Shown here: positions 2-14,204 of the stretch, one piece after another
Layout: each line of letters begins with the position of its first letter
How positions within the stretch are numbered: position 1 is the stretch's first letter
From: Escherichia phage BF17
Sequence record: MW822008.1
Length of the DNA: 64,000 nucleotides
Reading direction: 5' to 3' (one strand)
The notes under the pieces: generated by a model
Seen by the model: the letters and a program-made list of their open reading frames with translations, nothing else
The model's database searches: none
What the model was told of the DNA's origin: nothing
Made by a program: the position numbers and the translations under genes

Positions 2-400
2 GAGCTTGATGTTGGTGAAAGGTATCAGGTGTGGAATAATTCATTTTTTAATAAAGAACATTCTTCGACGGCATTTTATATTTTAGCATTTAATCCCACC
101 AATTGTTACCCAGAGAAGCATGAACGTTATCCGAATGACGACATGTGGTTTGAGTACAAAGAAGATTCTTATATGTCGTCAATTGTAGTTCCTGATGATT
201 TTAATGCACAAGATTTAACAGAAGAGTGGTGGTTCCAGCAGAATTTAGTACATGATGATATTGATTTATTTTTCTATATTGCATTTAAAATGCTTTATCA
301 CAACAATATAGTTAAAGAAAGTGTATCGTTTTCATGTCTATATATTGATGATTTGTACAATGAAATTCAAATAAACATGCCCAGAACGCCTGTATCGTAA
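2..400 (+). CDS. hypothetical protein, FQ-motif paralog family (5' partial, continues upstream of window)
   Basis: Open frame from window edge; motif EEWWFQQNLVHDD. Confidence 0.5.
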   Translation, partial: ELDVGERYQVWNNSFFNKEHSSTAFYILAFNPTNCYPEKHERYPNDDMWFEYKEDSYMSSIVVPDDFNAQDLTEEWWFQQNLVHDDIDLFFYIAFKMLYHNNIVKESVSFSCLYIDDLYNEIQINMPRTPVS

Positions 401-416
401 GATATGGGCTTTTTTC
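379..416 (+). terminator. possible intrinsic terminator
   Basis: gccca/tgggc stem with long loop followed by TTTTTT; weak. Confidence 0.25.
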
Positions 417-425
417 GTTTTGGTA

Positions 426-454
426 TTGACATAGAAGACCAAAGCTGTTATCAT
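426..454 (+). promoter_or_regulatory. sigma70-like early promoter
   Basis: TTGACA (426-431), 17 nt spacer, TGtTATCAT extended -10 (449-454). Confidence 0.4.
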
Positions 455-482
455 GTGTAATCATTTTAAAGGAGAACATATA

Positions 483-995
483 GTGAGTTTCATAATCCCA
501 AGTACATACGAAGATGCATCAAGTGCAGTTCATAAGATTCATTATATTTTTAATTTAATTATTAGATCTGCAAAAATTAAAATGTATGCACCTCTTGTGA
601 CAAATAATCGAAATGAAGAAATTTTTATTAGCACAGACAAAATTATTTTTCCATCTTTCCATGAAGATAGATTGTGGTTCATGCATTTAGCTGCATTACA
701 AAAATATAAAATGTCAATTCGTAATAATTTGGATATACCGTTATATCATCCTGATATTGGAGAGGATGAATATTTTCAGTACAGTACAGTACACCGCCAT
801 GAAGATATCTTTGTTGCTATGCTTATTGCTAAATTGAATACCGTTGATTTGGAGCAGCACAAATATAATAATACATCATGTAAGATCATAATCCCTGCAT
901 TCATAGCTCTTTATGATTATGTGGTGCATAACATAAAAGATGATACATATGCTTTCAATGAAGAGTATTTGGATTTTTTTAAGGAGAACATATGA
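483..995 (+). CDS. hypothetical protein, FQ-motif paralog family
   Basis: Track ORF 453..995; GTG at 483 follows AGGAG RBS and lies downstream of the promoter; motif DEYFQYSTVH. Confidence 0.55.
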   Translation: MSFIIPSTYEDASSAVHKIHYIFNLIIRSAKIKMYAPLVTNNRNEEIFISTDKIIFPSFHEDRLWFMHLAALQKYKMSIRNNLDIPLYHPDIGEDEYFQYSTVHRHEDIFVAMLIAKLNTVDLEQHKYNNTSCKIIIPAFIALYDYVVHNIKDDTYAFNEEYLDFFKENI

Positions 996-1522
996 GCAGT
1001 ACAACAGTACAGAAAGCAATGTCATTCAATGAAATTGGTACATTTAAAGATAAGATCATTGATTGCCTTGAATACATGATTTGTAGTAATATCGAAAGTA
1101 TCGAGATATTTAACAAGACAAATCGCTCTTACCATATGATGTACATTGCAAACAATAATGGTATCATTCCATTTATTTCGGATAGTACAATATGGTACGC
1201 ATGTGATACGAAAAAAACCACAATAGGTTTACATTTATTTGAGACACATTATGATCTAATTATTCCTGAACATTGTATGCAAGAAGAAGAATATTTTCAA
1301 ATGCAATGTATACATTCACCATTAGTGTTGTTTAGTTTATATATTATACCTTATATCACCAAATGTGTTCATGAGAATAAAGCTCCGTGGAATCATGAAT
1401 TTGTATCGTTGAAGTTATTGTATAATGTATTAGTAGAATATTATGATTACAGGCACAATGGTACAATCAGTGATGTATGGGATTTTGAATCGCTAAGGGT
1501 GAAAACATACACAGGTGAATGA
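992..1522 (+). CDS. hypothetical protein, FQ-motif paralog family
   Basis: ATGA overlap with upstream gene; motif EEYFQMQCIH. Confidence 0.6.
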   Translation: MSSTTVQKAMSFNEIGTFKDKIIDCLEYMICSNIESIEIFNKTNRSYHMMYIANNNGIIPFISDSTIWYACDTKKTTIGLHLFETHYDLIIPEHCMQEEEYFQMQCIHSPLVLFSLYIIPYITKCVHENKAPWNHEFVSLKLLYNVLVEYYDYRHNGTISDVWDFESLRVKTYTGE

Positions 1523-2138
1523 TATGACCAGAATTAAAATGTATGATTTGATGCAGTACAGTAAAATTGCCATTCCAGTGCTTAATAAAGTGCTGGATGC
1601 ATTCATTGCCAAATACCCTGAGAATTCAGTGTTATGTATTCCATTTAGCGTTCCAGATAAAGATGATATATTCCAAGTGAATGTCAGTACACGTGGTATT
1701 ACATTACAGCAGAAATACATGGATACGGAATATTATGGAATAAAGTTGGATTCAGTACAGGGTTCAAAATCAGCCTATGATTTTTTTGTTCCTAATAATA
1801 TAGAGTCATGGGAAACAAACATTTCAAAGAAAGATGAAAATGATGTTCCTATTAGTGGTGTGTTCAACAATAAAGTTTTTTATTATTACGAAACCGACAA
1901 ATTCCCTGAAGAGTTATATTACAATTCAGAAATGAATGAAGATGTAGATGCATTCATGTTTCAATTATCTTTAGTACATGATATCATTGATGTTCAAGAG
2001 TTAAGAGCAGAAATCAATTTAGCTAAAGAGTTATCGGACATGCTGCCACCGTTTAGTATGCTTTTTTGTGAAGGTGGTTATTTTTCAAAAGAAGTGTTTG
2101 AACATTTCGTAGATGTTGTAAAAGGGTTGGATATATAG
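1515..2138 (+). CDS. hypothetical protein, FQ-motif paralog family
   Basis: Track ORF; motif AFMFQLSLVHD. Confidence 0.6.
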   Translation: MNDMTRIKMYDLMQYSKIAIPVLNKVLDAFIAKYPENSVLCIPFSVPDKDDIFQVNVSTRGITLQQKYMDTEYYGIKLDSVQGSKSAYDFFVPNNIESWETNISKKDENDVPISGVFNNKVFYYYETDKFPEELYYNSEMNEDVDAFMFQLSLVHDIIDVQELRAEINLAKELSDMLPPFSMLFCEGGYFSKEVFEHFVDVVKGLDI

Positions 2139-2139
2139 T

Positions 2140-2334
2140 ATGCTTACAGTTGATGTTAAACAAAAATACCGTAAGTTTGATTGGTTCACCGATAGTTTCC
2201 AGCTTGAATTATTACATATGAATATCAGTGAAACATTATGTGCAGAAACACAAGATGAATTTGATGATAGAGTGATGAACATAGTAATGCTTTCTTGCTT
2301 TAAACATTTTGGTTATTTTTTCGGACAGAATTGA
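2140..2334 (+). CDS. hypothetical small protein
   Basis: 64 aa ORF abutting neighbours. Confidence 0.4.
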   Translation: MLTVDVKQKYRKFDWFTDSFQLELLHMNISETLCAETQDEFDDRVMNIVMLSCFKHFGYFFGQN

Positions 2335-2342
2335 GGTAAAAA

Positions 2343-2858
2343 ATGCATCAACACAAGCATCATTCATATGATTTTGCAATTAACATTATGAAGTTCATTC
2401 GAGCGTTGGAGGATGGGAAGCTTAGTCATAAGTACAGGAAAGAGGGTAACAATTGGTTCAGAAATGATTCCGAGTTCAGTTGTCATAAAATCGTGTATAG
2501 TAATCAGTACAGTGCCAATTACCTACAAGATGTAGTGATGTGTTTTGAATACGTGTTGCAGTTCAGGGGTTCAATCCAAGATGAGTTGATGGAGAACATG
2601 TACATCCGATACCTTCCAATGCTCAAAGATGAAAATGTATTATTAAATTCAATATACCAACGAGTTCGTGAAATTGAGTGCAGGGATATATTAGATACAG
2701 AAGAATCGTATTTCCAGCAATCCCTGATTTATTCACCTGATTTATTACAGGTACATAATTTGTTTAATACATTACGTCAGAACATCAGTACAGACATATT
2801 TTTGTCATTATCGGATTATGATACATTTGTCAAAGATTTAGAGGAAATAGGATTATGA
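2343..2858 (+). CDS. hypothetical protein, FQ-motif paralog family
   Basis: Motif ESYFQQSLIY. Confidence 0.6.
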   Translation: MHQHKHHSYDFAINIMKFIRALEDGKLSHKYRKEGNNWFRNDSEFSCHKIVYSNQYSANYLQDVVMCFEYVLQFRGSIQDELMENMYIRYLPMLKDENVLLNSIYQRVREIECRDILDTEESYFQQSLIYSPDLLQVHNLFNTLRQNISTDIFLSLSDYDTFVKDLEEIGL

Positions 2859-3196
2859 GTAGATTTTCGGTTTGTGTGGTAAACATAAAAAGTGATGGTA
2901 GTTTAATTGAATTAGATGTATATGATGATGATAATGCATATGGTATTAAAGTACAGGACAATGATGTGCAGTTCAGTTCAAGAACAAATTTTGAAAATCC
3001 AGTCCAAGTTCCTAATTTCATAGAAGATGAAGCAGCACGTTTCCAATACGAAACGGCATATGACAATGTACATATGCATATTATTATGCAACAAAGTTTA
3101 GTTCAATTAGTTCCTTTGTTCAGACAAAATATATATGTACATGAATTGTCGATCAATGACGTTCGCAGTTCCGTATTGTTCGATACAAATATGTAA
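2855..3196 (+). CDS. hypothetical protein, FQ-motif paralog family (divergent)
   Basis: ATGA overlap; motif ARFQYETAYD. Confidence 0.5.
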   Translation: MSRFSVCVVNIKSDGSLIELDVYDDDNAYGIKVQDNDVQFSSRTNFENPVQVPNFIEDEAARFQYETAYDNVHMHIIMQQSLVQLVPLFRQNIYVHELSINDVRSSVLFDTNM

Positions 3197-3206
3197 GGAA
3201 AGTACA

Positions 3207-3749
3207 ATGAGTTTATTAGATACATTAGAAAAAGACAGAAGTGCAATTAAGCGTTTAAAAGAGCAAGTACAAAAGATTGTATACAACGTTGATAAGTTTG
3301 AGGTTCCCGGAAGATTTGGTGATATTTCCCATACGGAGATCAAATCCCTTAAGTCAGATTTGTTGATTAAAAATAAAAATGGGTTGATTTTAGTTTTGAG
3401 TTCAGATATGATGGGGGCAACACATAGTTATAATGCAGTATCGGTGCGTTCAGAGTGTGAAGGTATATATCTATCACAGGGTTTCAATAGCGAGACACAG
3501 GTTTGTTTTTGTGATGCAGTACATGACCCTATGAAGTTCACGAGAAGTGAAGCCCAAGCGTTATTAGAGCTATCAGACGAGAGTTTGTTTCAGTACAGTA
3601 CAATGTATGACAATGATAAGCTTCGTTGTATGTACGCTGTAAAGCATTATACACAGGAGTTCTCTGGATTTGCATACCTTTTAGTTAGAACCAATACCAG
3701 ATATATTGATATGTTAGAAGATTACATCGATAAAGTTGTTAATGTATGA
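3207..3749 (+). CDS. hypothetical protein, FQ-motif paralog family
   Basis: Track ORF 3135..3749; in-frame ATG 3207 after AAGGA; motif ESLFQYSTMYD. Confidence 0.55.
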   Translation: MSLLDTLEKDRSAIKRLKEQVQKIVYNVDKFEVPGRFGDISHTEIKSLKSDLLIKNKNGLILVLSSDMMGATHSYNAVSVRSECEGIYLSQGFNSETQVCFCDAVHDPMKFTRSEAQALLELSDESLFQYSTMYDNDKLRCMYAVKHYTQEFSGFAYLLVRTNTRYIDMLEDYIDKVVNV

Positions 3750-3770
3750 TTTTGTGATGGGATGATGCTA

Positions 3771-3941
3771 ATGAAAGAGTTATTTGAAGATCAGTTCAAT
3801 ACATATGTGGATAATATTCTTTATTCCAGTCGTGCCAGTCAACGAGGAAATCGTGCTTACAATATTGATTACCTATTGGTGGTGCTGAGTTCACAGTACA
3901 CCAATGCGGTACAAAGGGTTTATTATGAAAAGTGCAAGTAA
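3771..3941 (+). CDS. hypothetical small protein (56 aa)
   Basis: Untracked small ORF; overlaps next ORF in another frame. Confidence 0.25.
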   Translation: MKELFEDQFNTYVDNILYSSRASQRGNRAYNIDYLLVVLSSQYTNAVQRVYYEKCK

Positions 3942-4134
3942 TAGTGATATTGCAAAGGAGAAGTTTAAGTGCAGTTTAGATTACGGTTTAAATGATTTTC
4001 TTACATGCACAATGTACAGGGATGATGATTATGAACAATCCGTAATTTCGTTGCACAGATATTTAGAAATAATTTACGCAAGATATCTTAGAAGGTTAGA
4101 GGGAATAGGGGATTGGTATAATGATTACGTTTGA
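3925..4134 (+). CDS. hypothetical protein
   Basis: Track ORF 3904..4134; internal ATG 3925. Confidence 0.35.
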   Translation: MKSASNSDIAKEKFKCSLDYGLNDFLTCTMYRDDDYEQSVISLHRYLEIIYARYLRRLEGIGDWYNDYV

Positions 4135-4357
4135 AGAACCAGAAACAATGAGTCCATATACGATGAAAGGTTTTGAATTCATGATGGATTCGATTTTGAA
4201 GAGTTCGTGTTTAGTACACAATCCTGAGCGTGCAACAGTGAGGGAATATCAGGACAATGCATTACAGCGTGTAATGAATATGTACAGGAATACGAGTCGC
4301 AAGCTTTGTGCGTTGAAAAGGATTGAAGAAATCAAGGTTTCTAGGCTGAATAAATAG
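4121..4357 (+). CDS. hypothetical protein
   Basis: 78 aa track ORF. Confidence 0.45.
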   Translation: MITFEEPETMSPYTMKGFEFMMDSILKSSCLVHNPERATVREYQDNALQRVMNMYRNTSRKLCALKRIEEIKVSRLNK

Positions 4358-4556
4358 AGACGTTTCATTTTGACAGGCCGCTGGAGGGGGTCAAAAAAAT
4401 TTCCGCTGAAAAACATGCTAAGGTATATGTTTAATATAAAGTTTTATATTGTGTTTTTTCAGAGTACAGTTCATGTTTCTTGAAACAAAAAATACCCCGC
4501 CGCCGAACGTTCTCCTTATATTGGAGTTTACCTTATTAATTATAGTAGAGATTAAG

Positions 4557-4934
4557 ATGGAAATAAAATATAATGAATTTTGTGCAAGGACATGGATGTA
4601 CACTGGTGAGTTAGTTACGCACTCTAACTTATACAAGGGTGATTTAAACTACGCTAGGGACAAGATTTTAAAGTACTGGAATGCTGACTTTTATTTGATG
4701 GATTTTAGTACTGGGTTTAGGGGTAAAGCAACCGAGATGTTGGACTATACAGTACTTGATGATTCTGCACTGTTTCAGGCGGCATTAGTATTTGATAAGA
4801 AGTACATCTGTACATTAGAAGAGATGATTGAATTACAGCGTAGAATTAAATGTATTCACAGGGAATGTATAGATATCTGGTGCAGTACTGGTGAAGATGA
4901 TTTTTGTAATCATTTCAATCTAGGGGAAGTGTGA
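4557..4934 (+). CDS. hypothetical protein, FQ-motif paralog family
   Basis: Track ORF 4449..4934; in-frame ATG 4557 after GC-rich leader; motif ALFQAALVFDKKY. Confidence 0.5.
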   Translation: MEIKYNEFCARTWMYTGELVTHSNLYKGDLNYARDKILKYWNADFYLMDFSTGFRGKATEMLDYTVLDDSALFQAALVFDKKYICTLEEMIELQRRIKCIHRECIDIWCSTGEDDFCNHFNLGEV

Positions 4935-5095
4935 TGGAATTTGATTTTTTAATATCAGTACATTCTTTTAAGCACAGTTATCAGTACTTTTGTAATTTAA
5001 ACAAAGGTGATTTGATTATGGATACAGATACAGAGGCTGTATACAGTTCTAATATTCTGTACAAATTCAGTACTAATCTGAAGGAGATTTTATGA
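4934..5095 (+). CDS. truncated paralog (N-terminal duplicate of the 5463 gene), 53 aa
   Basis: Untracked ORF; first ~27 aa near-identical to start of 5463..5819; stop overlaps next ATG. Confidence 0.4.
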   Translation: MEFDFLISVHSFKHSYQYFCNLNKGDLIMDTDTEAVYSSNILYKFSTNLKEIL

Positions 5096-5463
5096 AAAAA
5101 GAAATTAGAATTCAATTCGGTATGAGGAAAAGAGAGGTCATCTGTACACTGAATCATGCGGTCGTGGAAAGCCTTGGTGGTGCATTACAAAAATTCTCCC
5201 ATTTTGTTCTTGTACTATATGAAAATGGGTCTTTTAAAATCTTCACATATGATGATTCAAAAAATTACCGTAATGATTTTGTAAATCTGACAGTACTGTC
5301 AGAAGAGGAATTCTTTCAGGAAAGTACTGTCTGGAATTTACCAGGAGCACCAATTGAATACGTCCGTGCTACACAGGCAGAAATGATCAAAGTAATGCAG
5401 AACTATCCAGAAGATTATATGACTAAGTTTCCTGAATCTATTTATGTAGAGGTTGAGTACTGA
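5092..5463 (+). CDS. hypothetical protein, FQ-motif paralog family
   Basis: Motif EEFFQESTVWN. Confidence 0.6.
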   Translation: MKKEIRIQFGMRKREVICTLNHAVVESLGGALQKFSHFVLVLYENGSFKIFTYDDSKNYRNDFVNLTVLSEEEFFQESTVWNLPGAPIEYVRATQAEMIKVMQNYPEDYMTKFPESIYVEVEY

Positions 5464-5819
5464 TGGAATTTGATTTTTTAATATCAGTACATACTTTCAA
5501 GCACAGTTATCAGTACTTTTGTAATTTAAACAAAGGTGATTTAATGCACAGTGCAAATGAGTATATTCATTACACTCAGGGTAAATTTACATTCATTGAT
5601 TACAGTTCATTACAGTATCCACACCAAGATATGCCGGACTATACATTAATGGATACCGCAGAACTATTCCAAGAATCATTAGTATTTGATAAGAAGTACT
5701 TGTGTACATTTGAAGAAGTTATTGCAATACAAAATGAAATGAAAGAGTATGCTGCTTTGCATAAACCCAATGCAAGTATTAATCAAGAATACAAATTCAA
5801 TTTAGGAATTCAAGAATGA
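5463..5819 (+). CDS. hypothetical protein, FQ-motif paralog family
   Basis: Motif ELFQESLVFDKKY. Confidence 0.65.
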   Translation: MEFDFLISVHTFKHSYQYFCNLNKGDLMHSANEYIHYTQGKFTFIDYSSLQYPHQDMPDYTLMDTAELFQESLVFDKKYLCTFEEVIAIQNEMKEYAALHKPNASINQEYKFNLGIQE

Positions 5820-6175
5820 CATATGATTATTCTATGTACTATTATAAGTTACCTAAAGGATGGGACTTGTGCTGTAATCTTATTAAGGGCGACTCGGAAC
5901 ATGAGTTGAGTTTATATATGCATTACAAAGATTCTTGTTTTAAATTTATTCATGTATCACATGACGACTATGACTATGAATCTGAGAGTCTTATAGATTA
6001 TACAGTACTGGACGATGGTGAACTATTTCAGGCTGCATTAGTGTTTGATAAGAATAAGTACTCCTGTACATTTGAAGAAATGGTTTCTTTGCAAAATGAA
6101 ATGAAGAGATTTGAAAAAGAAAACGTATTTAATCCATCCCCATCAAGAACGAATAATTATTATTTCAATATATGA
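5816..6175 (+). CDS. hypothetical protein, FQ-motif paralog family
   Basis: Motif ELFQAALVFDKNKY. Confidence 0.65.
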   Translation: MTYDYSMYYYKLPKGWDLCCNLIKGDSEHELSLYMHYKDSCFKFIHVSHDDYDYESESLIDYTVLDDGELFQAALVFDKNKYSCTFEEMVSLQNEMKRFEKENVFNPSPSRTNNYYFNI

Positions 6176-6184
6176 GATTATAAA

Positions 6185-6676
6185 ATGACATTACAGAGTT
6201 CATTGGAAAAAGCAAAGAAGATTCATGAGTACATGAATATGGCAAAAGAAGGTTCAGTTTACGGTGTTTTCAAAGACACAAGTACTCAATATTATGTACC
6301 GGATAACCTCCTTTATAATGACTGCTCAGATACAGAAACGTGCGTACTGGATACAGAAACGTGCATACTAGATACCGACCCTAATGATTATGAATGCTTC
6401 ATTAATATGCATAATGAGTACATGGTCTATATTAATGATACAGATACCATCAACAGTACTGACAGCGATTCCAATGACATTATAATTCCGAGTGAAGTAC
6501 TGGAAGGTCCGTGGGATAGTGAAGAGTATTACTTCCAACAAAGTACTGTATATGATAATGAAGTACTTGATGTTATTATAATTATGTGGTACTTTAAAAG
6601 TATTGGTTCTGGGAACTTCTATTTCGATTACAAATACGTAAAGAAAACTGTAGATAACGGTATTAACAGGGGTTGA
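6185..6676 (+). CDS. hypothetical protein, FQ-motif paralog family
   Basis: Motif EEYYFQQSTVYDNEVLDVIIIMWYF. Confidence 0.7.
   Translation: MTLQSSLEKAKKIHEYMNMAKEGSVYGVFKDTSTQYYVPDNLLYNDCSDTETCVLDTETCILDTDPNDYECFINMHNEYMVYINDTDTINSTDSDSNDIIIPSEVLEGPWDSEEYYFQQSTVYDNEVLDVIIIMWYFKSIGSGNFYFDYKYVKKTVDNGINRG
6329..6379 (+). repeat. 21-bp tandem repeat inside CDS
   Basis: gatacagaaacgtgcgtactg x2.4, encodes DTETCVLDTETCILDTD. Confidence 0.6.
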
Positions 6677-6677
6677 A

Positions 6678-7148
6678 ATGAGTTTAGAAAGAGCATTAGA
6701 GATTGCGAAGTTAATTGATTTATGCAGCAAAGAAATTGTAGCAAATTGTCTTAATGGATATCTATTCAAGGAAGGTAAATCATATTGTCGAATGAGATAC
6801 GATGACAGTAGTGAGTACATTCACATGTATGAAGAAAACTTAGATTCTTCTGAAACAACACTCAATGGGTGTGATGTTAATTTGGAAGATAATTACATGT
6901 ACTTCTGTCGTGATGCTGATATTTTAATACAAGATTCTGACATTATATCTGGTGCAGCAGAGAAACATCTTCCGTATTCAGTACTGGATAATGACTGGGG
7001 AAGTGAAGAGTACTACTTCCAGCAGAATACTATCTACGAGGAAGATGTACTTGACAAGCTTGTCATTCTGTGGTACTTTAATAATACAGATTGTCCTAGC
7101 TTCTATTTGGACTTGGATCTACTACGAGTTATTAAAGAGGATATATGA
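6678..7148 (+). CDS. hypothetical protein, FQ-motif paralog family
   Basis: Motif EEYYFQQNTIYEEDVL. Confidence 0.7.
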   Translation: MSLERALEIAKLIDLCSKEIVANCLNGYLFKEGKSYCRMRYDDSSEYIHMYEENLDSSETTLNGCDVNLEDNYMYFCRDADILIQDSDIISGAAEKHLPYSVLDNDWGSEEYYFQQNTIYEEDVLDKLVILWYFNNTDCPSFYLDLDLLRVIKEDI

Positions 7149-7588
7149 GTTTAGCAAGTGCACTTGAACTAGCACACAGAATACATCACTTCCACGATAA
7201 CATAAAAAGTGGGTTCTATGGTGATAAAGTAAGTGCATTTGGTGATGAGTATTATCTATCAGGTATAAAGACATACTCTGATGATATTTTACTTATGGGA
7301 CAGGATAAAGACAATACTATACAGTACTCTTCATGTAGTCAATATACTAATTTTTTTGTATATATTCCAGGTACTAAGATTACTTTTGACACAACAAATA
7401 CACCTGTTGACTTCGGGGTACTTGATGGCCAGTGGGGTACTGAAGAGTATTACTTCCAACAGAGTCTCATTTTTAACCAAGAAATTCTTGATTCCTTGGT
7501 TGTGTTGTGGTACTTTAAGGAATTGAATTTTGAACCATTCTTTCTTGACTGGGGAGCATGTGAATATTTAAGTACAGGGGATTTGTAA
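7145..7588 (+). CDS. hypothetical protein, FQ-motif paralog family
   Basis: Motif EEYYFQQSLIFNQEIL. Confidence 0.7.
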   Translation: MSLASALELAHRIHHFHDNIKSGFYGDKVSAFGDEYYLSGIKTYSDDILLMGQDKDNTIQYSSCSQYTNFFVYIPGTKITFDTTNTPVDFGVLDGQWGTEEYYFQQSLIFNQEILDSLVVLWYFKELNFEPFFLDWGACEYLSTGDL

Positions 7589-8076
7589 TGTCATTACAAA
7601 GTGCATTGAAAGAAGCAAAGAAGATTCATGAGTACATGATTATGGTACAGGAAGGTTCAGTACCAGGTGTATATAAAACATCTGATACTGAATTTTTTGT
7701 AAAAGACCGTGACGATTATGACGAGTCCGAGATATGTGCAGAAACATTAGTACTGCACACTGATACTGGTGACAGTGATAACTGTGAATATCATATGTAC
7801 AATCAGTACATTAGTTATTGTCGTAATGAAGATATTACCATCTACAACACAGATAGTGATGCTGATGACACTATCATTCCTTATTCAGTACTGGAAGGAC
7901 CGTGGGATAGTGAAGAATATTACTTCCAGAATAGTACGTTGTACAATGAAGAAGAATTAGATGTTATTGTAATTATGTGGTATTTCAAAAGTATTGACTC
8001 CAGTAGTTTCTATTTTGATTATGAATATGTAGAGAATACTGTAGGAGAAGGTAATGTCATTACAAAGTGCTCTTGA
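7588..8076 (+). CDS. hypothetical protein, FQ-motif paralog family
   Basis: Motif EEYYFQNSTLYNEEEL. Confidence 0.7.
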   Translation: MSLQSALKEAKKIHEYMIMVQEGSVPGVYKTSDTEFFVKDRDDYDESEICAETLVLHTDTGDSDNCEYHMYNQYISYCRNEDITIYNTDSDADDTIIPYSVLEGPWDSEEYYFQNSTLYNEEELDVIVIMWYFKSIDSSSFYFDYEYVENTVGEGNVITKCS

Positions 8077-8506
8077 AAAAGCAAAAGAACTACATGGATA
8101 CTTTGACGATATAAAGGCAGGAAAGTTCAAAGAAGTGTACAAAGCCGAGAACGGCAACTACTACAAGGATGAAATGTATAATAACTCCGTTGGTGTAAGG
8201 GTTATTCTTGGGTTGAATTCCAATAGTCCTATATCGTTTTCTGAATACAATAGAGATGCAGAATTTATTAGTTATGTTGAAAATGGTAGCATTCGTTTTA
8301 TTAATCGCAAAAAACCATTAATTTTGAATTATGAAGTACTGGAAGGTCCGTGGGATAGTGAAGAGTATTACTTCCAAAACAGTACTGTTTACGATGATGA
8401 AGTACTTGAAGCATTAGTTATTATGTGGTACTTAAAGAGTGTTAACTGTCCTCGATTTTATTTGGATTTCGAAGAACTTCGTAAAGATCCAGAAGGTATA
8501 GAATGA
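8054..8506 (+). CDS. hypothetical protein, FQ-motif paralog family
   Basis: GGAG RBS; motif EEYYFQNSTVYDDEVL. Confidence 0.7.
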   Translation: MSLQSALEKAKELHGYFDDIKAGKFKEVYKAENGNYYKDEMYNNSVGVRVILGLNSNSPISFSEYNRDAEFISYVENGSIRFINRKKPLILNYEVLEGPWDSEEYYFQNSTVYDDEVLEALVIMWYLKSVNCPRFYLDFEELRKDPEGIE

Positions 8507-8817
8507 AAAACTTATTCAGTGTTCAGTACGTCCCTGGTGAAATTAGTTTATTGTATCTGTTTGATCATGATAATTCATTATTACTAGTAGTAAAGAAATG
8601 CCAAGCTAGTTCATTTGTTGAATACATTCACGATAGTGAATATATACCTGATTTTTTAGAGTGTGATTATTACGATGAACATGAATCATTTATTTTCCAG
8701 GAATCGCTCGTGTGGGATAAATCGATCAACTTCTTTACGTTAATTGAATTACAAAAGCAGGTGAAGTATCATTGGAATTACTTAATCACACAGGATTACA
8801 TTGAGATAGAAATATAA
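8503..8817 (+). CDS. hypothetical protein, FQ-motif paralog family
   Basis: Motif ESFIFQESLVWDKS. Confidence 0.6.
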   Translation: MKNLFSVQYVPGEISLLYLFDHDNSLLLVVKKCQASSFVEYIHDSEYIPDFLECDYYDEHESFIFQESLVWDKSINFFTLIELQKQVKYHWNYLITQDYIEIEI

Positions 8818-9125
8818 TGACTAAAAATGAATTTGATTCACTTTGTACGGTTTATAATTCATTAACAGAAATACCTGACTTTATTAATTACATTTCAGCT
8901 TTAAATCAAATTATGCATAGTTTTGAACAATCGTTTGAAGAGAAATATGCTGGTAGAAAAGTTCTATGTCATATGTCAATGTACTTAGGAGATGGTGAGC
9001 CTTACACTACAAGTACTACATGTGAAATAAAAAAATATAATATATTATTGGGGACAATAGAATTCACAGTATCCAATGGTGGTAGTTATATGTACTTTAG
9101 AGATGGAGTGGTTGAATTATTATGA
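8817..9125 (+). CDS. hypothetical protein
   Basis: 102 aa track ORF, no family motif. Confidence 0.5.
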   Translation: MTKNEFDSLCTVYNSLTEIPDFINYISALNQIMHSFEQSFEEKYAGRKVLCHMSMYLGDGEPYTTSTTCEIKKYNILLGTIEFTVSNGGSYMYFRDGVVELL

Positions 9126-9571
9126 GTTACGAAAGTGCAATCAAGAAAGCAAATGATATTCTACGCGTCGTTAAATTCTTCAAAGAAAATCCTGAATACT
9201 TAGCTGATGAAAACCATGATCACGATGAGAGATTGAGACGAAAAATTGTCGCTTTATTTGACACTAATGCGGATAATTATAGTCTAATTGAGTTAGCATA
9301 CGATTATATTTCATTGAACCGAAACGGCAATATAGTTAATATAGAAAGACATGCAACTGAAGAATCTTTTAAAATTTCAGATATTTTATCCCTGAGTACT
9401 GAAGAAGGGTACTTCCAGGGTAGTACTGTTTATGAACAAGGGACACTTGACAATCTATGCACATTCAGTGTAATATATCAGAAATCTGTACTAGATGTAT
9501 TTTATCTTGACACTGCTGAACTGGATACACTAACCAATTTTGTTACTACTGAAGAGGCTACATTCGAGTGA
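9122..9571 (+). CDS. hypothetical protein, FQ-motif paralog family
   Basis: Motif EEGYFQGSTVYEQGTL. Confidence 0.65.
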   Translation: MSYESAIKKANDILRVVKFFKENPEYLADENHDHDERLRRKIVALFDTNADNYSLIELAYDYISLNRNGNIVNIERHATEESFKISDILSLSTEEGYFQGSTVYEQGTLDNLCTFSVIYQKSVLDVFYLDTAELDTLTNFVTTEEATFE

Positions 9572-10104
9572 TGAAAGTTAACATCAATGACTTTGATGCA
9601 TTACAAGATTTATCAAAAAAGATTCGCACCATTGTACCAGTACTCAAAAAATGCAGTACTGGTTTAATCGATCCTAGTACTGTTGTTAATGAGAAGTACA
9701 ATTTTCATTATGTATTACAGGGTACTGGGGCATTCCAGAAGTGTGAGGTGCGTGAGACACACGTAATTGATACATCATTGTTTTCTATTGGTGCACCTGT
9801 GTCGAATAATACTATTTTCCTAGACAACGCTGGAAATATTCAACAATTAACATTTAAGAAAAGGAAAAAGAACAATAACATTGGTGTGTATGCGATGAAG
9901 TGGGGGCAACCTGATTTGAAGCGTGAAATTCACATCCCTAAGTACAATTACAATGCATTTGACGAACAGTGTTTTCAACTATCGTGTACTGACCCTGACT
10001 ATGCTATCATTCAGTTCTATATGGAATTGCAGATTGCATTTAACAGTAATTTGTATATTAACTTATTGGCGATGAACATCGATGAAGTATTCAAAAACAT
10101 TTAA
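9568..10104 (+). CDS. hypothetical protein, FQ-motif paralog family (divergent)
   Basis: Motif EQCFQLSCTDPDY. Confidence 0.5.
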   Translation: MMKVNINDFDALQDLSKKIRTIVPVLKKCSTGLIDPSTVVNEKYNFHYVLQGTGAFQKCEVRETHVIDTSLFSIGAPVSNNTIFLDNAGNIQQLTFKKRKKNNNIGVYAMKWGQPDLKREIHIPKYNYNAFDEQCFQLSCTDPDYAIIQFYMELQIAFNSNLYINLLAMNIDEVFKNI

Positions 10105-10300
10105 TCGAATTGAATACATGAGAACTGTGAGTGCAGTGTGGGACATATGGTTCACTACTAAACCAAAAATGGATTACCATGACTTTAAGCTCTTGTTCTT
10201 CGTTGGCTCTAACAAACAGGATGTTGCAATGAAGGGTTATATTCAGCACTTACAGGAACTAATCCAGAAGAGAATATATGAAAATAATAGACCAAAATGA
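10082..10300 (+). CDS. hypothetical protein
   Basis: 72 aa track ORF. Confidence 0.4.
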   Translation: MKYSKTFNRIEYMRTVSAVWDIWFTTKPKMDYHDFKLLFFVGSNKQDVAMKGYIQHLQELIQKRIYENNRPK

Positions 10301-10469
10301 CATTGCTAAACTATTCAATATATATTCTACTAGAATGATGCAAACAGACTCATATAGTACTGAATTCAAAGAGTTGAAAGTACTGATGTACTTAGGAACC
10401 CAATACCAAGAACAAGTTATTTTAGAATATATTAATTCGTTGAAGAAGGATATCCGTTATGTACGATGA
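10278..10469 (+). CDS. hypothetical protein
   Basis: 63 aa track ORF. Confidence 0.4.
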   Translation: MKIIDQNDIAKLFNIYSTRMMQTDSYSTEFKELKVLMYLGTQYQEQVILEYINSLKKDIRYVR

Positions 10470-11019
10470 TTTAGATCTTGCGTTTGAACGTATGGTAATT
10501 TTAATGCAATGTGCAGAAATGCATGAAACAATCCGTCGCACCAAAGGGATTGAATATACAAGTAAACTATTCTCATACGAAAGTCGTCGAGGGATGGATC
10601 ATTTTTACTGCACTGATTGTTCAAAGTTTTCAGTACTGAAATATTATCATCCTACTGTTTCCAATAATAGTTTAATATCCACATATGACGGTGTTCTGTT
10701 TAGTGTAATGTATGACACATTACATCCATCAATTTCAATCTATAAAGATTGCGATAGTAGTTTATCGTATATAATTGAAGATTACTTATCTCCTAATACT
10801 GAAGAGAATATTTTTCAGAACAGTGTGTTGCATGATGAATTAAGCATAAAATGCATCTATATGTTCAATAAGTTAAAAGAGTACGCCGATAATAATTACT
10901 TAATTGATAAGTTAGCAGTATTGTCTGTTTCCGTTTTTAATACAAATGACATTGATATGAAATACTATAATGAGATTTGTAAAGTACATCATATGTATAA
11001 GGAACTATTATGTCAATAA
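10459..11019 (+). CDS. hypothetical protein, FQ-motif paralog family
   Basis: Motif EENIFQNSVLHDE. Confidence 0.6.
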   Translation: MYDDLDLAFERMVILMQCAEMHETIRRTKGIEYTSKLFSYESRRGMDHFYCTDCSKFSVLKYYHPTVSNNSLISTYDGVLFSVMYDTLHPSISIYKDCDSSLSYIIEDYLSPNTEENIFQNSVLHDELSIKCIYMFNKLKEYADNNYLIDKLAVLSVSVFNTNDIDMKYYNEICKVHHMYKELLCQ

Positions 11020-11612
11020 ATGCAAATAAATGTTGTAGTGCAGATGTGCATTTGTTTTTTAAGAAATTAGCAAATGATATTATATATATGCAGGAAATGA
11101 TTTATCACAAACGAGCGGATTTAGAAAAAGCATTAGTACAGTTCTCATTTATGCTTGATGGTGATATATTTCTAGAGAGTGATGCATTGCGAATAGTATT
11201 AGACAAAAATGCTAAAAGATTTTTATTTCATATAGATAATAAATTATGTTCCTCCGTATGTCGTACTTTTTATAATCGTGATTCGGACTTATATCAATTC
11301 CTTTATTCTAAAGGTGCAGTAGAAGCATCATATGGTGATGGTTATGCCCTAGGAAAGAGTATTCCATTTATGAAATCATTTAAAATAGAACACATCAGTA
11401 CTGATGAAGATGCAATGTTCACAAATGATATAACTATGGGACGTGAAGATGCAATGCGATATATTACAAATTCTATGCATACATTCTTTCAACGAACAGA
11501 ATTTGATAATGTATATATATCAAATGTAAATATTTTCAATGACCTGTGTCAGTACTTGAGAAGTGTTTGTGATTTTGATGAAAGCTATTGTAAGCTTTAT
11601 ACTGAGGTATAA
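11010..11612 (+). CDS. hypothetical protein
   Basis: 200 aa track ORF; family motif not clear. Confidence 0.5.
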   Translation: MSINANKCCSADVHLFFKKLANDIIYMQEMIYHKRADLEKALVQFSFMLDGDIFLESDALRIVLDKNAKRFLFHIDNKLCSSVCRTFYNRDSDLYQFLYSKGAVEASYGDGYALGKSIPFMKSFKIEHISTDEDAMFTNDITMGREDAMRYITNSMHTFFQRTEFDNVYISNVNIFNDLCQYLRSVCDFDESYCKLYTEV

Positions 11613-11617
11613 AACAA

Positions 11618-11980
11618 ATGAACACATTAAGTATTACATACTATACAACTAAAAAATTAGTTACTTGTTTAATATCATTGAAGACAAATCATGATGATAT
11701 GTTTGATATGGCTGCATATGAATTAGAATTATCAGAAGATGGCTTCAAGAGCTATGAAGTATATAGCTATGTTCGTGAAGATGTAATTGACACTACACTA
11801 ATGCAAGAGGATGAGTTATTCCAAGAAAGTTTAGTATGGGATAATAAGTACGATTGTAACTTTGATTTCTTATGTTTAATCCAGAAAGAAATGAAAAGAA
11901 TCTTTGATAATTATCCAGTGAAGAGATTGAGTACTGGACCGGAGCAGTACAGGAGAATTTTATTCCGTTATGAAGACTGA
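11618..11980 (+). CDS. hypothetical protein, FQ-motif paralog family
   Basis: Motif DELFQESLVWDNKY. Confidence 0.6.
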   Translation: MNTLSITYYTTKKLVTCLISLKTNHDDMFDMAAYELELSEDGFKSYEVYSYVREDVIDTTLMQEDELFQESLVWDNKYDCNFDFLCLIQKEMKRIFDNYPVKRLSTGPEQYRRILFRYED

Positions 11981-12305
11981 ATTAGTGAAAGTAATGTACG
12001 CTACTCATATTAAACTACTACTTGTGAAATTTGATTATAATAAAAAACATAATGATTTCTATACTTTAATTCGTGATGAAAATACATTCTCCTTGCGATG
12101 CAACAATATACCGTTGAAGATAAATGATTTTACTTCACTTGACGAGGGTGAATTATTTCAAGAATCATTAGTTTTTAATAGTAATATAAAAATTGATATA
12201 GAAGTTATTAAAAAATACCAGATTTTATTGAACAAAATTATGAATTGTTATCCATGTGAAATAGGTGGTCATATGCAGTTCAAATCAAAAATGTATGAAT
12301 TATGA
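11970..12305 (+). CDS. hypothetical protein, FQ-motif paralog family
   Basis: Motif GELFQESLVFNSN. Confidence 0.6.
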   Translation: MKTELVKVMYATHIKLLLVKFDYNKKHNDFYTLIRDENTFSLRCNNIPLKINDFTSLDEGELFQESLVFNSNIKIDIEVIKKYQILLNKIMNCYPCEIGGHMQFKSKMYEL

Positions 12306-12312
12306 GGTTTAT

Positions 12313-12849
12313 ATGTTAGATGAAAAAATGAACAATGGAACACAATATAATCATCTTAAGTTAGATACATTCGAATCAGCTATCAGTACTGCACAAGATA
12401 TAATTGATATTATCAAGTTCATTAAAGAAAATAAGTTCAAATGTTTGAAAATACTAAATCGTTCAATGTACCGTGATAACAATATTCATGTATCAGTACG
12501 TAGACCGAAAGATAAAGAAAGTGGGAGAGATTTCTATAACAACAGTGAGCAGTTCGAATGTGAATATGATCCAGAATTCAGAGGCGGTTTCATGTGTTAC
12601 TGTATAAAGGATACCTCACACATTGAGATACGTTCATCGAAAGGTGGCATACGTACATTAGAGTTCATTGATATAGTTTTAAATCAGGAATACTACTTTC
12701 AACTATCATTGTTGTTTCCTGCATACGATTTAGGAGTTCTATTCATGTATAAGTACTTTTATGAGCACTGGAATGAAGACTTCTATCTGGACTTAGAAGA
12801 TTACCAATTAGTTTGGAAAGAAATGGTAGAACTTCGCAACCCATCTTGA
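12313..12849 (+). CDS. hypothetical protein, FQ-motif paralog family
   Basis: Track ORF 12265..12849; in-frame ATG 12313 after GAGG; motif QEYYFQLSLLFPAYD. Confidence 0.55.
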   Translation: MLDEKMNNGTQYNHLKLDTFESAISTAQDIIDIIKFIKENKFKCLKILNRSMYRDNNIHVSVRRPKDKESGRDFYNNSEQFECEYDPEFRGGFMCYCIKDTSHIEIRSSKGGIRTLEFIDIVLNQEYYFQLSLLFPAYDLGVLFMYKYFYEHWNEDFYLDLEDYQLVWKEMVELRNPS

Positions 12850-12875
12850 CACCCTCCGATTCTTTGTGATATAAT
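12846..12875 (+). promoter_or_regulatory. sigma70-like early promoter
   Basis: TTGACA (12846-12851), 18 nt spacer, TGaTATAAT (-10 at 12870-12875). Confidence 0.55.
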
Positions 12876-12908
12876 CTCTTTATATTAATTGTAAAGGGTT
12901 ATATCACA

Positions 12909-13385
12909 ATGTCCAAAGACCTATCATTTAGCAATGCACAAAAAATAGCAAAAGACATTATCAGGGTTTATAAATTCCTTGCGAATGTTACTGAAGATTT
13001 TTTCGTGGGGGAACATAAAGTTATTAAACGAAATGGATACCTTTCCTTTATGGATGGGTTACTCTATAGTTCAGATGAATCAACTTGTAGCATTAGAGTA
13101 CTTGATGAAGTACCAAGTGGTGATTTTATTTCATACCATTTTCCAAGTTCAGATAATTTCAAATACTACAATCATCTTCTTATAAATGAAGCATTTGATA
13201 CGATTGTAATTAACACTGAAGAAGAGTTCTTCCAGTACAGTACTGTGTATCCAGAGAGGATTGTTTTCAGTTCAGTGATTTACACTGCCCTTAAAAATGA
13301 ACTAAATTCCGATAGTGATCATTACTACTTGGACCTGAACAATGTCGATTGTATTATTGAGTACATGGAGAAAAATGGTTTATGA
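12909..13385 (+). CDS. hypothetical protein, FQ-motif paralog family
   Basis: Motif EEEFFQYSTVYPERI. Confidence 0.65.
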   Translation: MSKDLSFSNAQKIAKDIIRVYKFLANVTEDFFVGEHKVIKRNGYLSFMDGLLYSSDESTCSIRVLDEVPSGDFISYHFPSSDNFKYYNHLLINEAFDTIVINTEEEFFQYSTVYPERIVFSSVIYTALKNELNSDSDHYYLDLNNVDCIIEYMEKNGL

Positions 13386-13876
13386 TTACTACAGAATATG
13401 ATTACTATGGTGTTTTAGAATTTACAGAAAATATCTATCGCATTGCAAAGGAGTTCAGAAGTCCTAAGCCTTTTGGTGGTATGTTTCAATACGATGAGTT
13501 CAGTTCATCTAAAGGAAGACTAGCATTTACTAATGTTAGAGGTAATCAAATCTACGCGGAGTACTTTGATGATAATGACTTTCATTACAAAGCCGAATAC
13601 ATTTCATATTGCCCTGGGTCTGATTTGAAGATTAATATTGATACCTTTAGAGATTCAGTGCTTGTCCCTTATAGTGAGTTAGTTTTCATGACAGAAGAAA
13701 TGTACTTTCAAGAGTCTTGTATTCATGATGTAAAAGTACTTAATGCTATGTTATTTTATGGTGCACTACTTCATCATTACAAATACAAACAACGATTCTT
13801 TTTAGATTTAGTAGTATACTATAAATGCGTGGATTATTTGAATGCAAAATACGACAACAATTCAGTACATGACTGA
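13382..13876 (+). CDS. hypothetical protein, FQ-motif paralog family
   Basis: Motif EEMYFQESCIHDVKVL. Confidence 0.65.
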   Translation: MITTEYDYYGVLEFTENIYRIAKEFRSPKPFGGMFQYDEFSSSKGRLAFTNVRGNQIYAEYFDDNDFHYKAEYISYCPGSDLKINIDTFRDSVLVPYSELVFMTEEMYFQESCIHDVKVLNAMLFYGALLHHYKYKQRFFLDLVVYYKCVDYLNAKYDNNSVHD

Positions 13877-14204
13877 TGGTACTGAATACTTTGTTTCAAG
13901 ATATGTAATCAACCACAACCATTATGTAACCTATATTCCAGAGTACAATCAATTTTATATCCAGATTTATCAAAATAATGGAAAGATAAATGATATATAT
14001 TCAGAAATAAAAATCCCTGATTATAGTACTTTATCAGAAGAGGAATTATTTCAGGAGAGCACTATCAGTACTGAAGATGTGTACGAAATAATGGAATACC
14101 AGAAGGTACTTAAACATTTTCATGAAGCAAATGATATACAAATCGATATTGTTAAACCGTGGTGTTACAATACATATGAGGTAAATTATGTTAGAAATGA
14201 TTAA
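13842..14204 (+). CDS. hypothetical protein, FQ-motif paralog family
   Basis: Motif EELFQESTISTEDV; alternative ATG at 13869. Confidence 0.55.
   Translation: MQNTTTIQYMTDGTEYFVSRYVINHNHYVTYIPEYNQFYIQIYQNNGKINDIYSEIKIPDYSTLSEEELFQESTISTEDVYEIMEYQKVLKHFHEANDIQIDIVKPWCYNTYEVNYVRND

Follow-up and report, generated by a model that had tools for sequence, protein, structure and literature searches.

Introduction

Microhomology-mediated insertions with flanking duplication are known from template switching of the FoSTeS/MMBIR type, and in phage T4 duplications and deletions at short homologies were reportedly described by Singer in 1982 and by Mosig in 1998, both cited in PMC2839356. Modular shuffling, together with mini-circles, has been described for the PeSLs of the T4-type phages RB49 and phi1 (Arbiol et al. 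2010, PMC2839356; Comeau et al. 2014, PMC4122927), which are intergenic regulatory cassettes that combine an early promoter with a stem-loop terminator and occur many times per genome. The mosaicism model of Hendrix and Hatfull, discussed in Martinsohn et al. 2008 (PMC2327257) and Pope et al. 2011 (PMC3029335), holds that illegitimate recombination at short or no homology is followed by homologous or homeologous spread. Hua et al. 2017 (PMC5646251) touch on the gene array examined here in a single sentence, where it serves as evidence for genome expansion.

The window, that is, the whole 64-kb stretch of DNA that was analysed, belongs to a 121Q/PBECO4/G17-type (Asteriusvirus) jumbo coliphage, a 350-kb E. 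coli phage. The 82-bp direct repeat found in it very probably arose when a segment made up of a gene stub and an entire gene, here termed gene B, was inserted illegitimately at microhomologies and the target site was thereby duplicated. As in the PeSL regions, short direct repeats flank small ORFan genes within a plastic part of the genome of a large lytic coliphage. The genes are present or absent exactly at these repeats when close relatives are compared (the pairs Turkey3/fEgEco12 and window/E9.1), crossovers map inside the repeats, and there is no dedicated recombinase, the general recombination of the phage acting on less than 100 bp of homology. Unlike a PeSL, the repeat in the window is coding, is present in just two copies, is without promoter or terminator and was, on our reading, itself made by insertion.

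Results

A paralogue array with one duplicated gene start

All features described below lie on the plus strand. Gene A (4557–4934, 125 aa) is the upstream neighbour, and its stop codon TGA overlaps the ATG of a 53-codon open reading frame (GTGTGATGG); the cargo gene B (5092–5463, 123 aa) follows, then gene C (5463–5819, 118 aa), the intact owner of the repeated 5' end, and gene D (5816–6175, 119 aa), a tandem paralogue of A and C. Genes A, C and D match the PHROG profile phrog_15629 (E = 5e-58 to 8e-60) and gene B matches phrog_13866 (6e-41), with cross-matches between the two profiles. All PHROG families matched by these genes are of unknown function, and Pfam and PADLOC scans of A, the short reading frame, B, C and D returned nothing usable. 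The four genes share the features of a larger family, being small plus-strand genes with an F-Q-x-S/T motif and a PHROG match; about 36 consecutive genes (window 29–24040) carry the acidic-aromatic F-Q-x-S motif, of which F75 and Q76 are invariant across 27 aligned paralogues. Homologues of gene B among 5.8 billion proteins fall into five clusters, all at least 93% identical. The C-terminal blocks that the initial annotation had recognised as common to A, C and D are indeed shared, at 73–85% identity in DNA, all three genes belonging to phrog_15629; their proteins are 40–44% identical. The number of A/C/D-type copies varies from one in phage A4 to two in TH47 and Ec-M-J and three in the window, from which it follows that unequal exchange probably does occur in the array.

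The two copies of the repeat, at 4932–5013 and 5461–5542, extend over 82 nt and differ at two positions (4964 T/A and 4969 T/C). A base-by-base comparison thus gives 97.6% identity at exactly the coordinates of the initial annotation, which had put it at about 95%; a repeat search reported 4932–5016 and 5461–5545 (85 nt, 96% identity, spacing 529). The next difference after the 82-nt block, 5014 G/A, already lies in the inserted DNA. The identity extends far beyond chance, the contrary having been named as the outcome that would refute the observation: the longest exact run common to both copies measures 44 nt, whereas 200 shuffles of 4400–6200 gave at most 17. Furthermore, the 34-nt identical core (4980–5013) occurs in the window in these two copies only, even at up to three mismatches (expected 0.00), and apart from the 82-nt pair no direct repeat in the 64-kb window reaches 90% identity. 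Since at least 10 phages that were sequenced independently show the same arrangement, an assembly artefact is excluded.

The repeat is coding sequence, consisting of the TGATG stop/start overlap and codons 1–27 of gene C. The downstream copy (5461–5542) is the original start of gene C, and the upstream copy (4932–5013) duplicates the overlap of A-stop and C-start together with those codons, most probably as a target duplication; the earlier description of it as a truncated copy of the 5' end of the gene at 5463, and of the repeat as a footprint of recombination, therefore stands. Neither copy contains a promoter-like plus-strand site or a terminator-like site, promoter-like sites in the repeat region number 16 against a shuffled expectation of 16.7, and the two copies fold no better than shuffles (z = -0.85 and -0.26). 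With no such sites and folds at shuffle level, a PeSL-like promoter/terminator reading of the repeat was rejected.

The segment between the copies derives from another position in the array

A full-length 364-like parent gene of 192–198 aa is found in phage A4 and in the metagenomic contigs L014 and L016 only, and in all three it is followed directly by an orthologue of gene B with the same ATGA overlap. Gene B is 92.7% identical in amino acids to A4_365, and 97.8% identical in nucleotides to L016 over window 5051–5460. A4_344–376 is collinear with window 29–16169; within this tract A4_364/365 stand opposite window 10459–11980, where the window holds only a 28% paralogue, and A4_366 and A4_367 pair with the window genes at 11970 and 12265. 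Because the window gene that is syntenic with the donor's gene B (11618–11980) is only 28% identical to B in amino acids, the inserted B must stem from a non-allelic site, located about 6 kb downstream in the array.

Both joints are visible. At the left junction (5009–5013), the microhomology GATTT is common to gene C (GGTGATTTAATGCAC) and to the donor gene (CAGGATTTGATTATGGAT); the junction reads GGTGATTT followed by GATTATGGAT, and the three donor-type loci (A4, L014 and L016) agree on it. At the right junction (5461–5467), the microhomology TGATGGA, a stop/start overlap, is shared by the end of B and start of 366 in the donor (GAGTACTGATGGATTTAGT) and by the end of A and start of C in the target (GAAGTGTGATGGAATTTGA), the junction reading GAGTACTGATGGA followed by ATTTGA. 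Beyond these 5 and 7 nt the parental flanks are unrelated, which is the anatomy of a microhomology joint. Both microhomologies are short and, TGATGGA being a common stop/start motif, a role of the right one in the join is not open to proof. Identical junctions occur in the window, G17, EC22.5-2, Turkey3, slurp01, 121Q and L015, which points to a single origin.

The first 48 nt of the stub (5017–5064) are just 79–81% identical to the three donor-type loci, compared with 94–98% for the remainder of the segment, so that either the real donor was another allele or the stub evolved fast. The exact donor sequence was found in no known genome. No one-junction intermediate was found either: junction searches of IMG/VR returned 121Q itself and no new context, and the two junction patterns gave 0 matches in JGI metagenomes. 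In a tblastn comparison the 364-like protein also seemed to extend into the 121Q repeat, a similarity that is best put down to chance.

These parents and joints bear directly on the proposal, made in the initial annotation, that unequal recombination had shuffled modules inside the array. A module has moved within the array; that it did so by unequal homologous crossing-over among A, C and D, with their C-terminal blocks duplicating the start of gene C, is scarcely credible, tandem paralogues of variable copy number with 73–85% identical blocks though they are. The 447 bp that separate the copies bear no relation to A, C or D and have an identified foreign parent, the junctions lie at 5–7-nt microhomologies outside the paralogous blocks, and crossing-over of this kind would yield hybrid full-length genes and whole-unit duplication instead of an 82-nt stub. 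The blocks around DYTVLDD..ELFQAALVFDKKY cannot be retained as the source of the repeat, since they represent ordinary paralogue similarity and come nowhere near the junctions.

Under the insertion that we favour, the ancestor would have had the gene order A-C-D, and a segment of about 447 bp would have been copied in from elsewhere in the same array, the source being an A4-like Asteriusvirus genome and the position some 6 kb further downstream. The copied segment would comprise the last ~47 codons of the 364-like gene and the entire gene B. Copying or joining would have left gene C after codon 27 at the 5-nt GATTT, run through the stub and then gene B, and re-entered the recipient at the TGATGGA stop/start overlap before gene C. 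Since the point of exit is 82 nt further downstream than that of re-entry, these 82 nt would now be doubled, and the upstream copy would have been fused in frame to the stub to give the 53-codon chimeric reading frame. The sequences show directly the parentage of each segment, both joints, the presence or absence of the unit exactly at the repeat and the tract of lateral transfer; the enzymology of the insertion, be it template switching or break-and-join, the order and number of its steps and the direction, gain or loss, in individual lineages are inferred.

A tandem duplication of about 6 kb, followed by a deletion in an A4-like ancestor and later transfer of the finished unit, is possible, if rather unlikely. 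By this route sister genomes would first cross over unequally at TGATGGA, so that the tract between the C start and the B end would be duplicated; a deletion from the GATTT of the first C copy to the GATTT of the first 364 copy would then remove about 5.9 kb, and homologous recombination would finally carry the unit into 121Q/G17-type backbones. The route employs the same two microhomologies, dispenses with co-infection in its first steps and suits head-full packaging phages, which tolerate and later trim duplications. No known genome has the large duplication or two copies of B, which occurs once in 12 of 12 records. Tandem duplication has been proposed for this very array (Hua et al. 2017, PMC5646251), and transfer of the finished unit between backbones is demonstrated; A4, however, the sole isolate with the donor arrangement, has a single C-type gene (A4_350, 54% identical to C) and is without a high-identity MEFDFLISVH-type 5' end.

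Presence, absence and lateral transfer of the unit

Of about 35 related records, 12 contain the unique 444 bp (10 carrier phages and A4), at one place per record. Ten related phages, G17 and phAPEC6 among them, carry the 529-bp unit, and about 20 lack it, the gap falling exactly at the repeat. The recombinant junction variants for which a search of related genomes had been suggested do exist. Gene A is followed directly by C in E9.1, fEgEco12, TH47, ph0011, Ec-M-J and UE-S1, and A-to-C spans of 646 bp indicate that the unit is missing from PBECO4, the SD-prefixed phages, Ecwhy_1, UB, WPEC3/5 and EC.P1. An apparent insertion of about 1.26 kb in G17, SHEFM2K, phAPEC6 and ECO103 proved to be an artefact, BLAST having joined a downstream paralogue match.

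Pairs of close relatives isolate the unit cleanly. Turkey3 and fEgEco12 have 0 mismatches over the equivalent of window 4600–6300 besides the 529-bp unit, and the unit is the only difference between the window and E9.1; the E9.1 repeat markers A71 and G124 occur in neither window copy. Between the window and Turkey3, the flanks diverge by 13–21%, with 13–26 mismatches per 100 bp, compared with 1 in 500 inside the unit (99.8% identity), and markers place both Turkey3 crossovers in the 3' ~34 nt of the repeat. A near-identical unit within diverged flanks, bounded by crossovers inside the repeat, means that the unit has also spread laterally by homologous recombination. Once formed, the two 82-nt copies would have served as plain homology, by which the 529-bp unit could be lost, and the same homology could have moved it between co-infecting phages into the diverged Turkey3 backbone.

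It is tempting to see in such a unit an active mobile cassette, whose repeats would be attachment sites for a recombinase or homing enzyme or would form a PeSL-like mini-circle. Direct repeats mark its borders and presence or absence changes exactly there; both crossovers in the diverged backbone fall in the same ~34-nt stretch, as a single crossover with a 529-bp circle would give, and RB49/phi1 provide a documented case of PeSL mini-circles (PMC2839356). The tract is accounted for equally well, however, if a linear co-infecting genome engaged in a double crossover, and the unit encodes no recombinase, transposase or endonuclease, B being a 123-aa member of the array superfamily. Given also that the repeat is confined to one site in 64 kb, has no promoter, terminator or significant structure and would itself be the product of the insertion, we regard an active cassette as very doubtful. 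An IS or transposon insertion was rejected for want of terminal inverted repeats and of a Pfam match in the cargo, and for a duplication of 82 bp as against the typical 2–14 bp; no inverted repeats were found at the ends of the 529-bp unit, the repeat search giving one unrelated weak pair. A homing-endonuclease or site-specific-recombinase cassette was likewise set aside, with no Pfam or PADLOC match in A, the short reading frame, B, C or D. A recombinase-free hitch-hiking cassette, whose 82-nt repeats permit excision as a mini-circle and re-integration in the conserved 5' ends of C-type genes in other co-infecting jumbo phages, is an improbable reading too. If it were true, such scars would be a general route by which the Asteriusvirus array of more than 30 genes gains or exchanges members, and the unit would be a coding-sequence analogue of the PeSL cassettes.

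A chimeric reading frame as a probable remnant of the insertion

The 53-codon reading frame (4934–5095; ATG at 4934, TGA at 5093–5095) encodes MEFDFLISVHSFKHSYQYFCNLNKGDLIMDTDTEAVYSSNILYKFSTNLKEIL, and its stop overlaps the ATG of gene B (ATGA, 5092–5095), just as the initial annotation had it. Codons 1–27 are the 5' end of gene C and codons 28–53 the 3' end of a 364-like gene. That the frame diverges after the repeat is likewise correct; what follows is no random read-through, it is the conserved C-terminus of another gene fused in frame. This stub (5014–5095) reads …DLIMD…ILYKFSTNLKEIL to the stop codon, with …GATACAGATACAGAGGCTGTA… in window 5014–5064, and aligns with the C-terminus of A4_364 and of the 198-aa genes in L014 and L016; A4_364 has no match within the window other than the chimeric frame.

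In 121Q the reading frame is 74 aa long, 121Q_366 retaining 21 further codons of the 364-like gene. The scar of a secondary 63-bp in-frame deletion lies at 5050–5060, between TAATGTTCTGT and TAATATTCTGT; the 63 bp are still present in 121Q, L015 and the donor-type loci, and a later deletion between 11-nt near-repeats would have turned the 74-aa form (121Q) into the 53-aa form of the window.

The chimeric frame is probably a remnant that keeps its reading frame and its stop/start overlaps, and its 53-aa product would be a by-product, not a functional protein. It matches only the first 39 positions of the PHROG profile and the F-Q motif, the only invariant feature of the superfamily, is absent, the join lying just past the donor FQQDL and far upstream of the motif in C. 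One might suppose that selection has kept it as a new micro-protein or as a required translational bridge for gene B, because the original fusion and the 63-bp deletion were both in frame (chance about 1/9), the frame is intact in all carriers examined with its TGATG and ATGA overlaps with A and B, and out-of-frame joins would end elsewhere. This is improbable, as gene B has its own strong Shine-Dalgarno sequence (GAAGGAG, 5080–5086), in 121Q a stretch of 24 nt in the repeat part shows 11 changes and the 21 extra codons are present, and no part of the unit diverges faster than the first 16 stub codons. The pN/pS of the stub against A4_364 is 0.40 and that of gene B 0.3–0.6, with 3–13 substitutions per class, counts too small for a dN/dS verdict or for telling constraint from neutrality. 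The event gives annotators reason to flag 53/74-aa 'hypothetical proteins' such as G17_00559, PBI_121Q_366 and PSLUR01_00268 as chimeric remnants.

Discussion

Taken together, the event behind the 82-bp repeat is a new instance of a known process, the ordinary shuffling of phage genomes, and its analysis reveals no new mechanism and no function of the family. In keeping with the mosaicism of Hendrix and Hatfull, a novel joint lies at 5–7-nt microhomologies, one of them at a gene boundary, and spread via flanking homology has left a patchy distribution with sharp discontinuities of identity. It departs from usual mosaicism in that the two parents can still be identified, together with the 121Q form as a partly decayed intermediate, which is uncommon; in that one joint lies within two genes and gives an in-frame chimeric reading frame; and in that a single paralogous array contains both the donor and the recipient site. 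In relation to the array duplication of Hua et al. (PMC5646251), genes A, C and D are also adjacent paralogues of that array; in the event described here, no gene would have been duplicated in tandem, the segment having been inserted ectopically with duplication of an 82-bp target.

At the level of mechanism, copying of a distant segment between 5–7-nt microhomologies with duplication of the target would resemble FoSTeS/MMBIR-type events, and the secondary deletion between 11-nt near-repeats recalls both these and the short-homology events of T4. By comparison with FoSTeS/MMBIR, the mechanism proposed for Asteriusvirus is one read from the anatomy of the junctions.

For a single event of gene shuffling in a jumbo phage, the 'fossil record' preserved in public genomes is unusually complete. 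It comprises the recipient site (A-C), both microhomology joints and the donor locus (364-B, A4-like), and in addition the 74-aa intermediate in 121Q, the later deletion and a transfer tract in Turkey3 bounded within the repeat. These genomes illustrate how the paralogue array of 121Q-type phages is remodelled, in that illegitimate joins make novelty and homology of less than 100 bp then spreads or deletes it.

The repeat and its genomic setting

In the window, which has a G+C content of 31-36% and carries nearly all of its genes on the plus strand, genes A (4557-4934), B (5092-5463), C (5463-5819) and D (5816-6175) and a 53-codon ORF (4934-5095) are linked throughout by overlapping stop and start codons (TGATG or ATGA). 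The relatives of this phage (EC22.5-2, G17, 121Q and others) are jumbo coliphages of ~350 kb in the genus Asteriusvirus; across 4400-6400, EC22.5-2 is 99.3% identical to the window, and G17, SHEFM2K, phAPEC6, CRJP21, slurp01 and 121Q are 93-99% identical.

The genes belong to a plus-strand array (29-24040) of ~36 consecutive genes of 100-207 aa with a common motif, [DE][DE]x[YFL]-F-Q-x-[ST]-[LTV]-[IVL], about two-thirds along the protein (for example DSEEYYFQQSTVYDNE and STEEGYFQGSTVYEQG). Only F and Q are invariant among 27 aligned array paralogues, and the motif occurs in 0 of 44 minus-strand ORFs. The array genes form one superfamily, spread over several PHROGs and filling >24 kb. To the eye it looks similar to the TEV protease motif E-x-x-Y-x-Q-(S/G), which is probably coincidence.

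A repeat finder paired 4932-5016 with 5461-5545 (85 nt, 96% identity, spacing 529). Compared base by base, the duplication spans 82 nt, 4932-5013 (copy 1) and 5461-5542 (copy 2, the original start of gene C), with two mismatches (4964 T/A, 4969 T/C) that leave exact runs of 32, 4 and 44 nt; the mismatch that follows, at 5014, falls within inserted DNA. The repeat is far beyond chance, since the 44-nt run compares with a maximum of 17 among 200 shuffles, a 34-nt core is found at two sites only, the two copies (expected 0.00), and no other direct repeat in the 64-kb window exceeds 86% identity. The initial annotation had described this repeat with exactly these limits, the 53-codon ORF and the sharing among A, C and D, and all of these observations are borne out; A, C and D share DNA blocks of 73-85% identity and their proteins are 40-44% identical.

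A chimeric ORF and the source of the insert

The 53-codon ORF is an in-frame chimera: gene C contributed codons 1-27, from its 5' end, and a gene resembling A4_364 of phage A4 (ON286972) contributed codons 28-53, here termed the stub, from its 3' end. The terminal residues of the ORF (…KGDLIMDTDTEAVYSSNILYKFSTNLKEIL, stop) match the C-terminus of A4_364 (…AFQQDLIMDVDSAATYSSNVLCKEFQNSKILELLYIADCNILYKFCTHLKEIL, stop), as do those of the 74-aa 121Q_366, in which VLCKEFQNSKMLELLCIADCN is also retained. A4_364 is a full-length 192-aa gene preceding A4_365, the orthologue of B (92.7% aa identity). A search of 50,697 phage records found this gene at full length in A4 only, the 121Q remnant providing the sole further matches. 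Two metagenomic contigs, L014 and L016, share the donor order (182 aa, 198 aa, B, 112 aa), and over window 5051-5460 the identity to L016 is 97.8%.

Window 29-16169 and A4_344-376 are collinear. The sole C-type gene of A4, A4_350, lies opposite A/C/D; A4_364/365 lie ~5.5 kb beyond it, facing window 10459-11980, where the only counterpart is a B paralogue (11618-11980) of 28% identity. The stub and B were thus copied from elsewhere in an A4-like array, at a site not allelic to their present one. A4_366 pairs with w11970 (41%) and A4_367 with w12265 (34%). Furthermore, B is 93% identical to A4_365 against just 25-41% for the surrounding positional counterparts, which means that the segment is a xenologue from an A4-like lineage and not an old local duplicate.

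We rate the 53-aa ORF as a remnant, possibly a translational bridge, above a functional micro-protein, because its product lacks the F-Q motif, the sole invariant feature across the 27 paralogues, because B is preceded by a Shine-Dalgarno sequence of its own (GAAGGAG), and because the 121Q repeat part and the stub start have diverged. On the other side, the fusion and a later 63-bp deletion are both in frame, with stop/start overlaps preserved; substitution counts for selection analysis are small. In public annotation the 53/74-aa remnant is a 'hypothetical protein' (G17_00559, PBI_121Q_366, PSLUR01_00268, Turkey3 XMR01016). The gene A homologue of phAPEC6 is labelled 'amidohydrolase 3' and the array member A4_348 'DNA ligase'; a Pfam scan of window gene A supported neither label.

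Junctions and mechanism

Both joins of the inserted segment are microhomology joints, with bases common to the two parents at each. On the left, the window has AAAGGTGATTT joined to GATTATGGAT, gene C has AAAGGTGATTTAATGCAC and all three donor loci have AACAGGATTTGATTATGGAT, the bases in common being GATTT (5009-5013). On the right, the window has GAGTACTGATGGA joined to ATTTGATTT, the donor GAGTACTGATGGATTTAGT and the empty site (A next to C and a single copy of the repeat, as in E9.1; or window A/repeat copy 1) GAAGTGTGATGGAATTTGATTT; here the common bases are TGATGGA, the stop/start overlap.

Two microhomology-mediated illegitimate joins, through template switching in replication or break-and-join, most likely brought in ~447 bp and left 82 bp of the target duplicated. 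The initial annotation had instead invoked unequal recombination shuffling modules of the array; its interpretation stands only in part, as unequal crossing-over between paralogous blocks fits neither the parentage of the insert nor the positions of the joints. Conceivably, a ~6-kb tandem duplication followed by internal deletion built the 529-bp unit, a route that needs the same two joints, but no known genome has two B copies. A dedicated mobile element is unsupported, since neither a recombinase nor an endonuclease is encoded in the unit and terminal inverted repeats are absent, and the repeat, confined to this site in the 64 kb, is without promoter, terminator or significant structure.

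Relative to 121Q, contig L015 and the donors, a further 63 bp have been lost in frame from the window lineage, between TAATGTTCTGT and TAATATTCTGT (scar 5050-5060). Divergence within the unit is greatest over the initial 48 nt of the stub (5017-5064), at 79-81% identity to all donor-type loci against 94-98% for the rest of the unit. The clustered changes there create a perfect palindrome, ATACAG-AGG-CTGTAT (hairpin 5028-5042), and a GATACA-GATACA tandem, and are reminiscent of quasi-palindrome templated mutation. The 121Q-type upstream repeat copy has 11 substitutions in 24 nt (ACGGTCAAGGGTGCACCTCAGTACC; 2066-2090 of the 121Q locus L003, and L015, ENA ERZ27269291), encoding TVKGAPQYLC in place of SFKHSYQYFC. 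This patch, absent from the other loci compared, may stem from an older allele of C or from a templated change of several bases.

Distribution and lateral spread

Of ~35 related records, 12 contain the unique 444 bp (5017-5460), namely 10 carrier phages and A4, with 121Q listed twice. Junctions are identical in all carriers compared at base level (G17, EC22.5-2, Turkey3, slurp01, 121Q and L015), which points to a single origin. In ~20 phages C directly follows A with one repeat copy, verified in E9.1 (near-isogenic with the window), fEgEco12, TH47, ph0011, Ec-M-J and UE-S1, and deduced from 646-bp A-to-C spans in PBECO4, the SD-* phages, Ecwhy_1, UB, WPEC3/5 and EC.P1.

Lateral transfer of the unit is indicated by two comparisons: Turkey3 and fEgEco12 show 0 mismatches across window-equivalent 4600-6300 save the unit itself, and the window differs from Turkey3 by 13-26 mismatches/100 bp in the flanks and by 1 in 500 inside the unit. 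In Turkey3, copy 1 has backbone (fEgEco12-type) markers and copy 2 has window-type markers, then backbone type in its last ~34 nt; both crossovers of this recent transfer thus lie within the repeat. Homologous recombination via the repeat has spread the unit, and probably deletes it as well. In slurp01 (LT603033; locus L013, 2047-2573) a 53-aa ORF of the window type, 63-bp deletion included, is paired with a 121Q-type B (ADVEMGG…SFNVEVEY), a further mosaic that shows recombination inside the unit too.

Variation extends beyond the unit, and mosaicism of the array is pervasive. In UE-S1 (ON568341; locus L006, 1503-2231) A and C form a single in-frame 242-aa CDS (…NHFNLGERVMEFDFLISVH…), A's stop being lost through a small change just ahead of the TGATG overlap; this is a further rearrangement at the A/C boundary, or possibly a sequencing error. 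A 21-nt tandem duplication at 6329-6370 (GATACAGAAACGTGCGTACTG / GATACAGAAACGTGCATACTA), within the gene at 6185-6676, encodes the peptide repeat DTETC(V/I)L. Window 6200-6700 is essentially non-homologous to Turkey3 (44-56 mismatches/100) and 6800-6900 nearly identical; Turkey3 and fEgEco12 have additional 345-nt and 186-nt genes in place of the 6185 gene. The A/C/D subfamily has one copy in A4, two in TH47 and Ec-M-J (no D) and three in the window.

Relation to known processes

For this array, Hua et al. (2017, PMC5646251) proposed tandem duplication, naming it in a single sentence as evidence of genome expansion. Among described processes, PeSL-mediated modular shuffling in T4-type phages (PMC2839356) comes closest, likewise involving an ORFan cassette between short direct repeats, close relatives differing by indels, crossovers inside repeats and no dedicated recombinase. 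The window repeat, however, lacks three defining PeSL features: promoter, terminator stem-loop and multi-copy dispersal. More broadly, the case is a textbook instance of the phage mosaicism model in which illegitimate recombination comes first and homologous spread follows (PMC2327257, PMC3029335). The process is a known one, of which this is a new and unusually well-resolved example, and neither the mechanism nor the kind of element is new.
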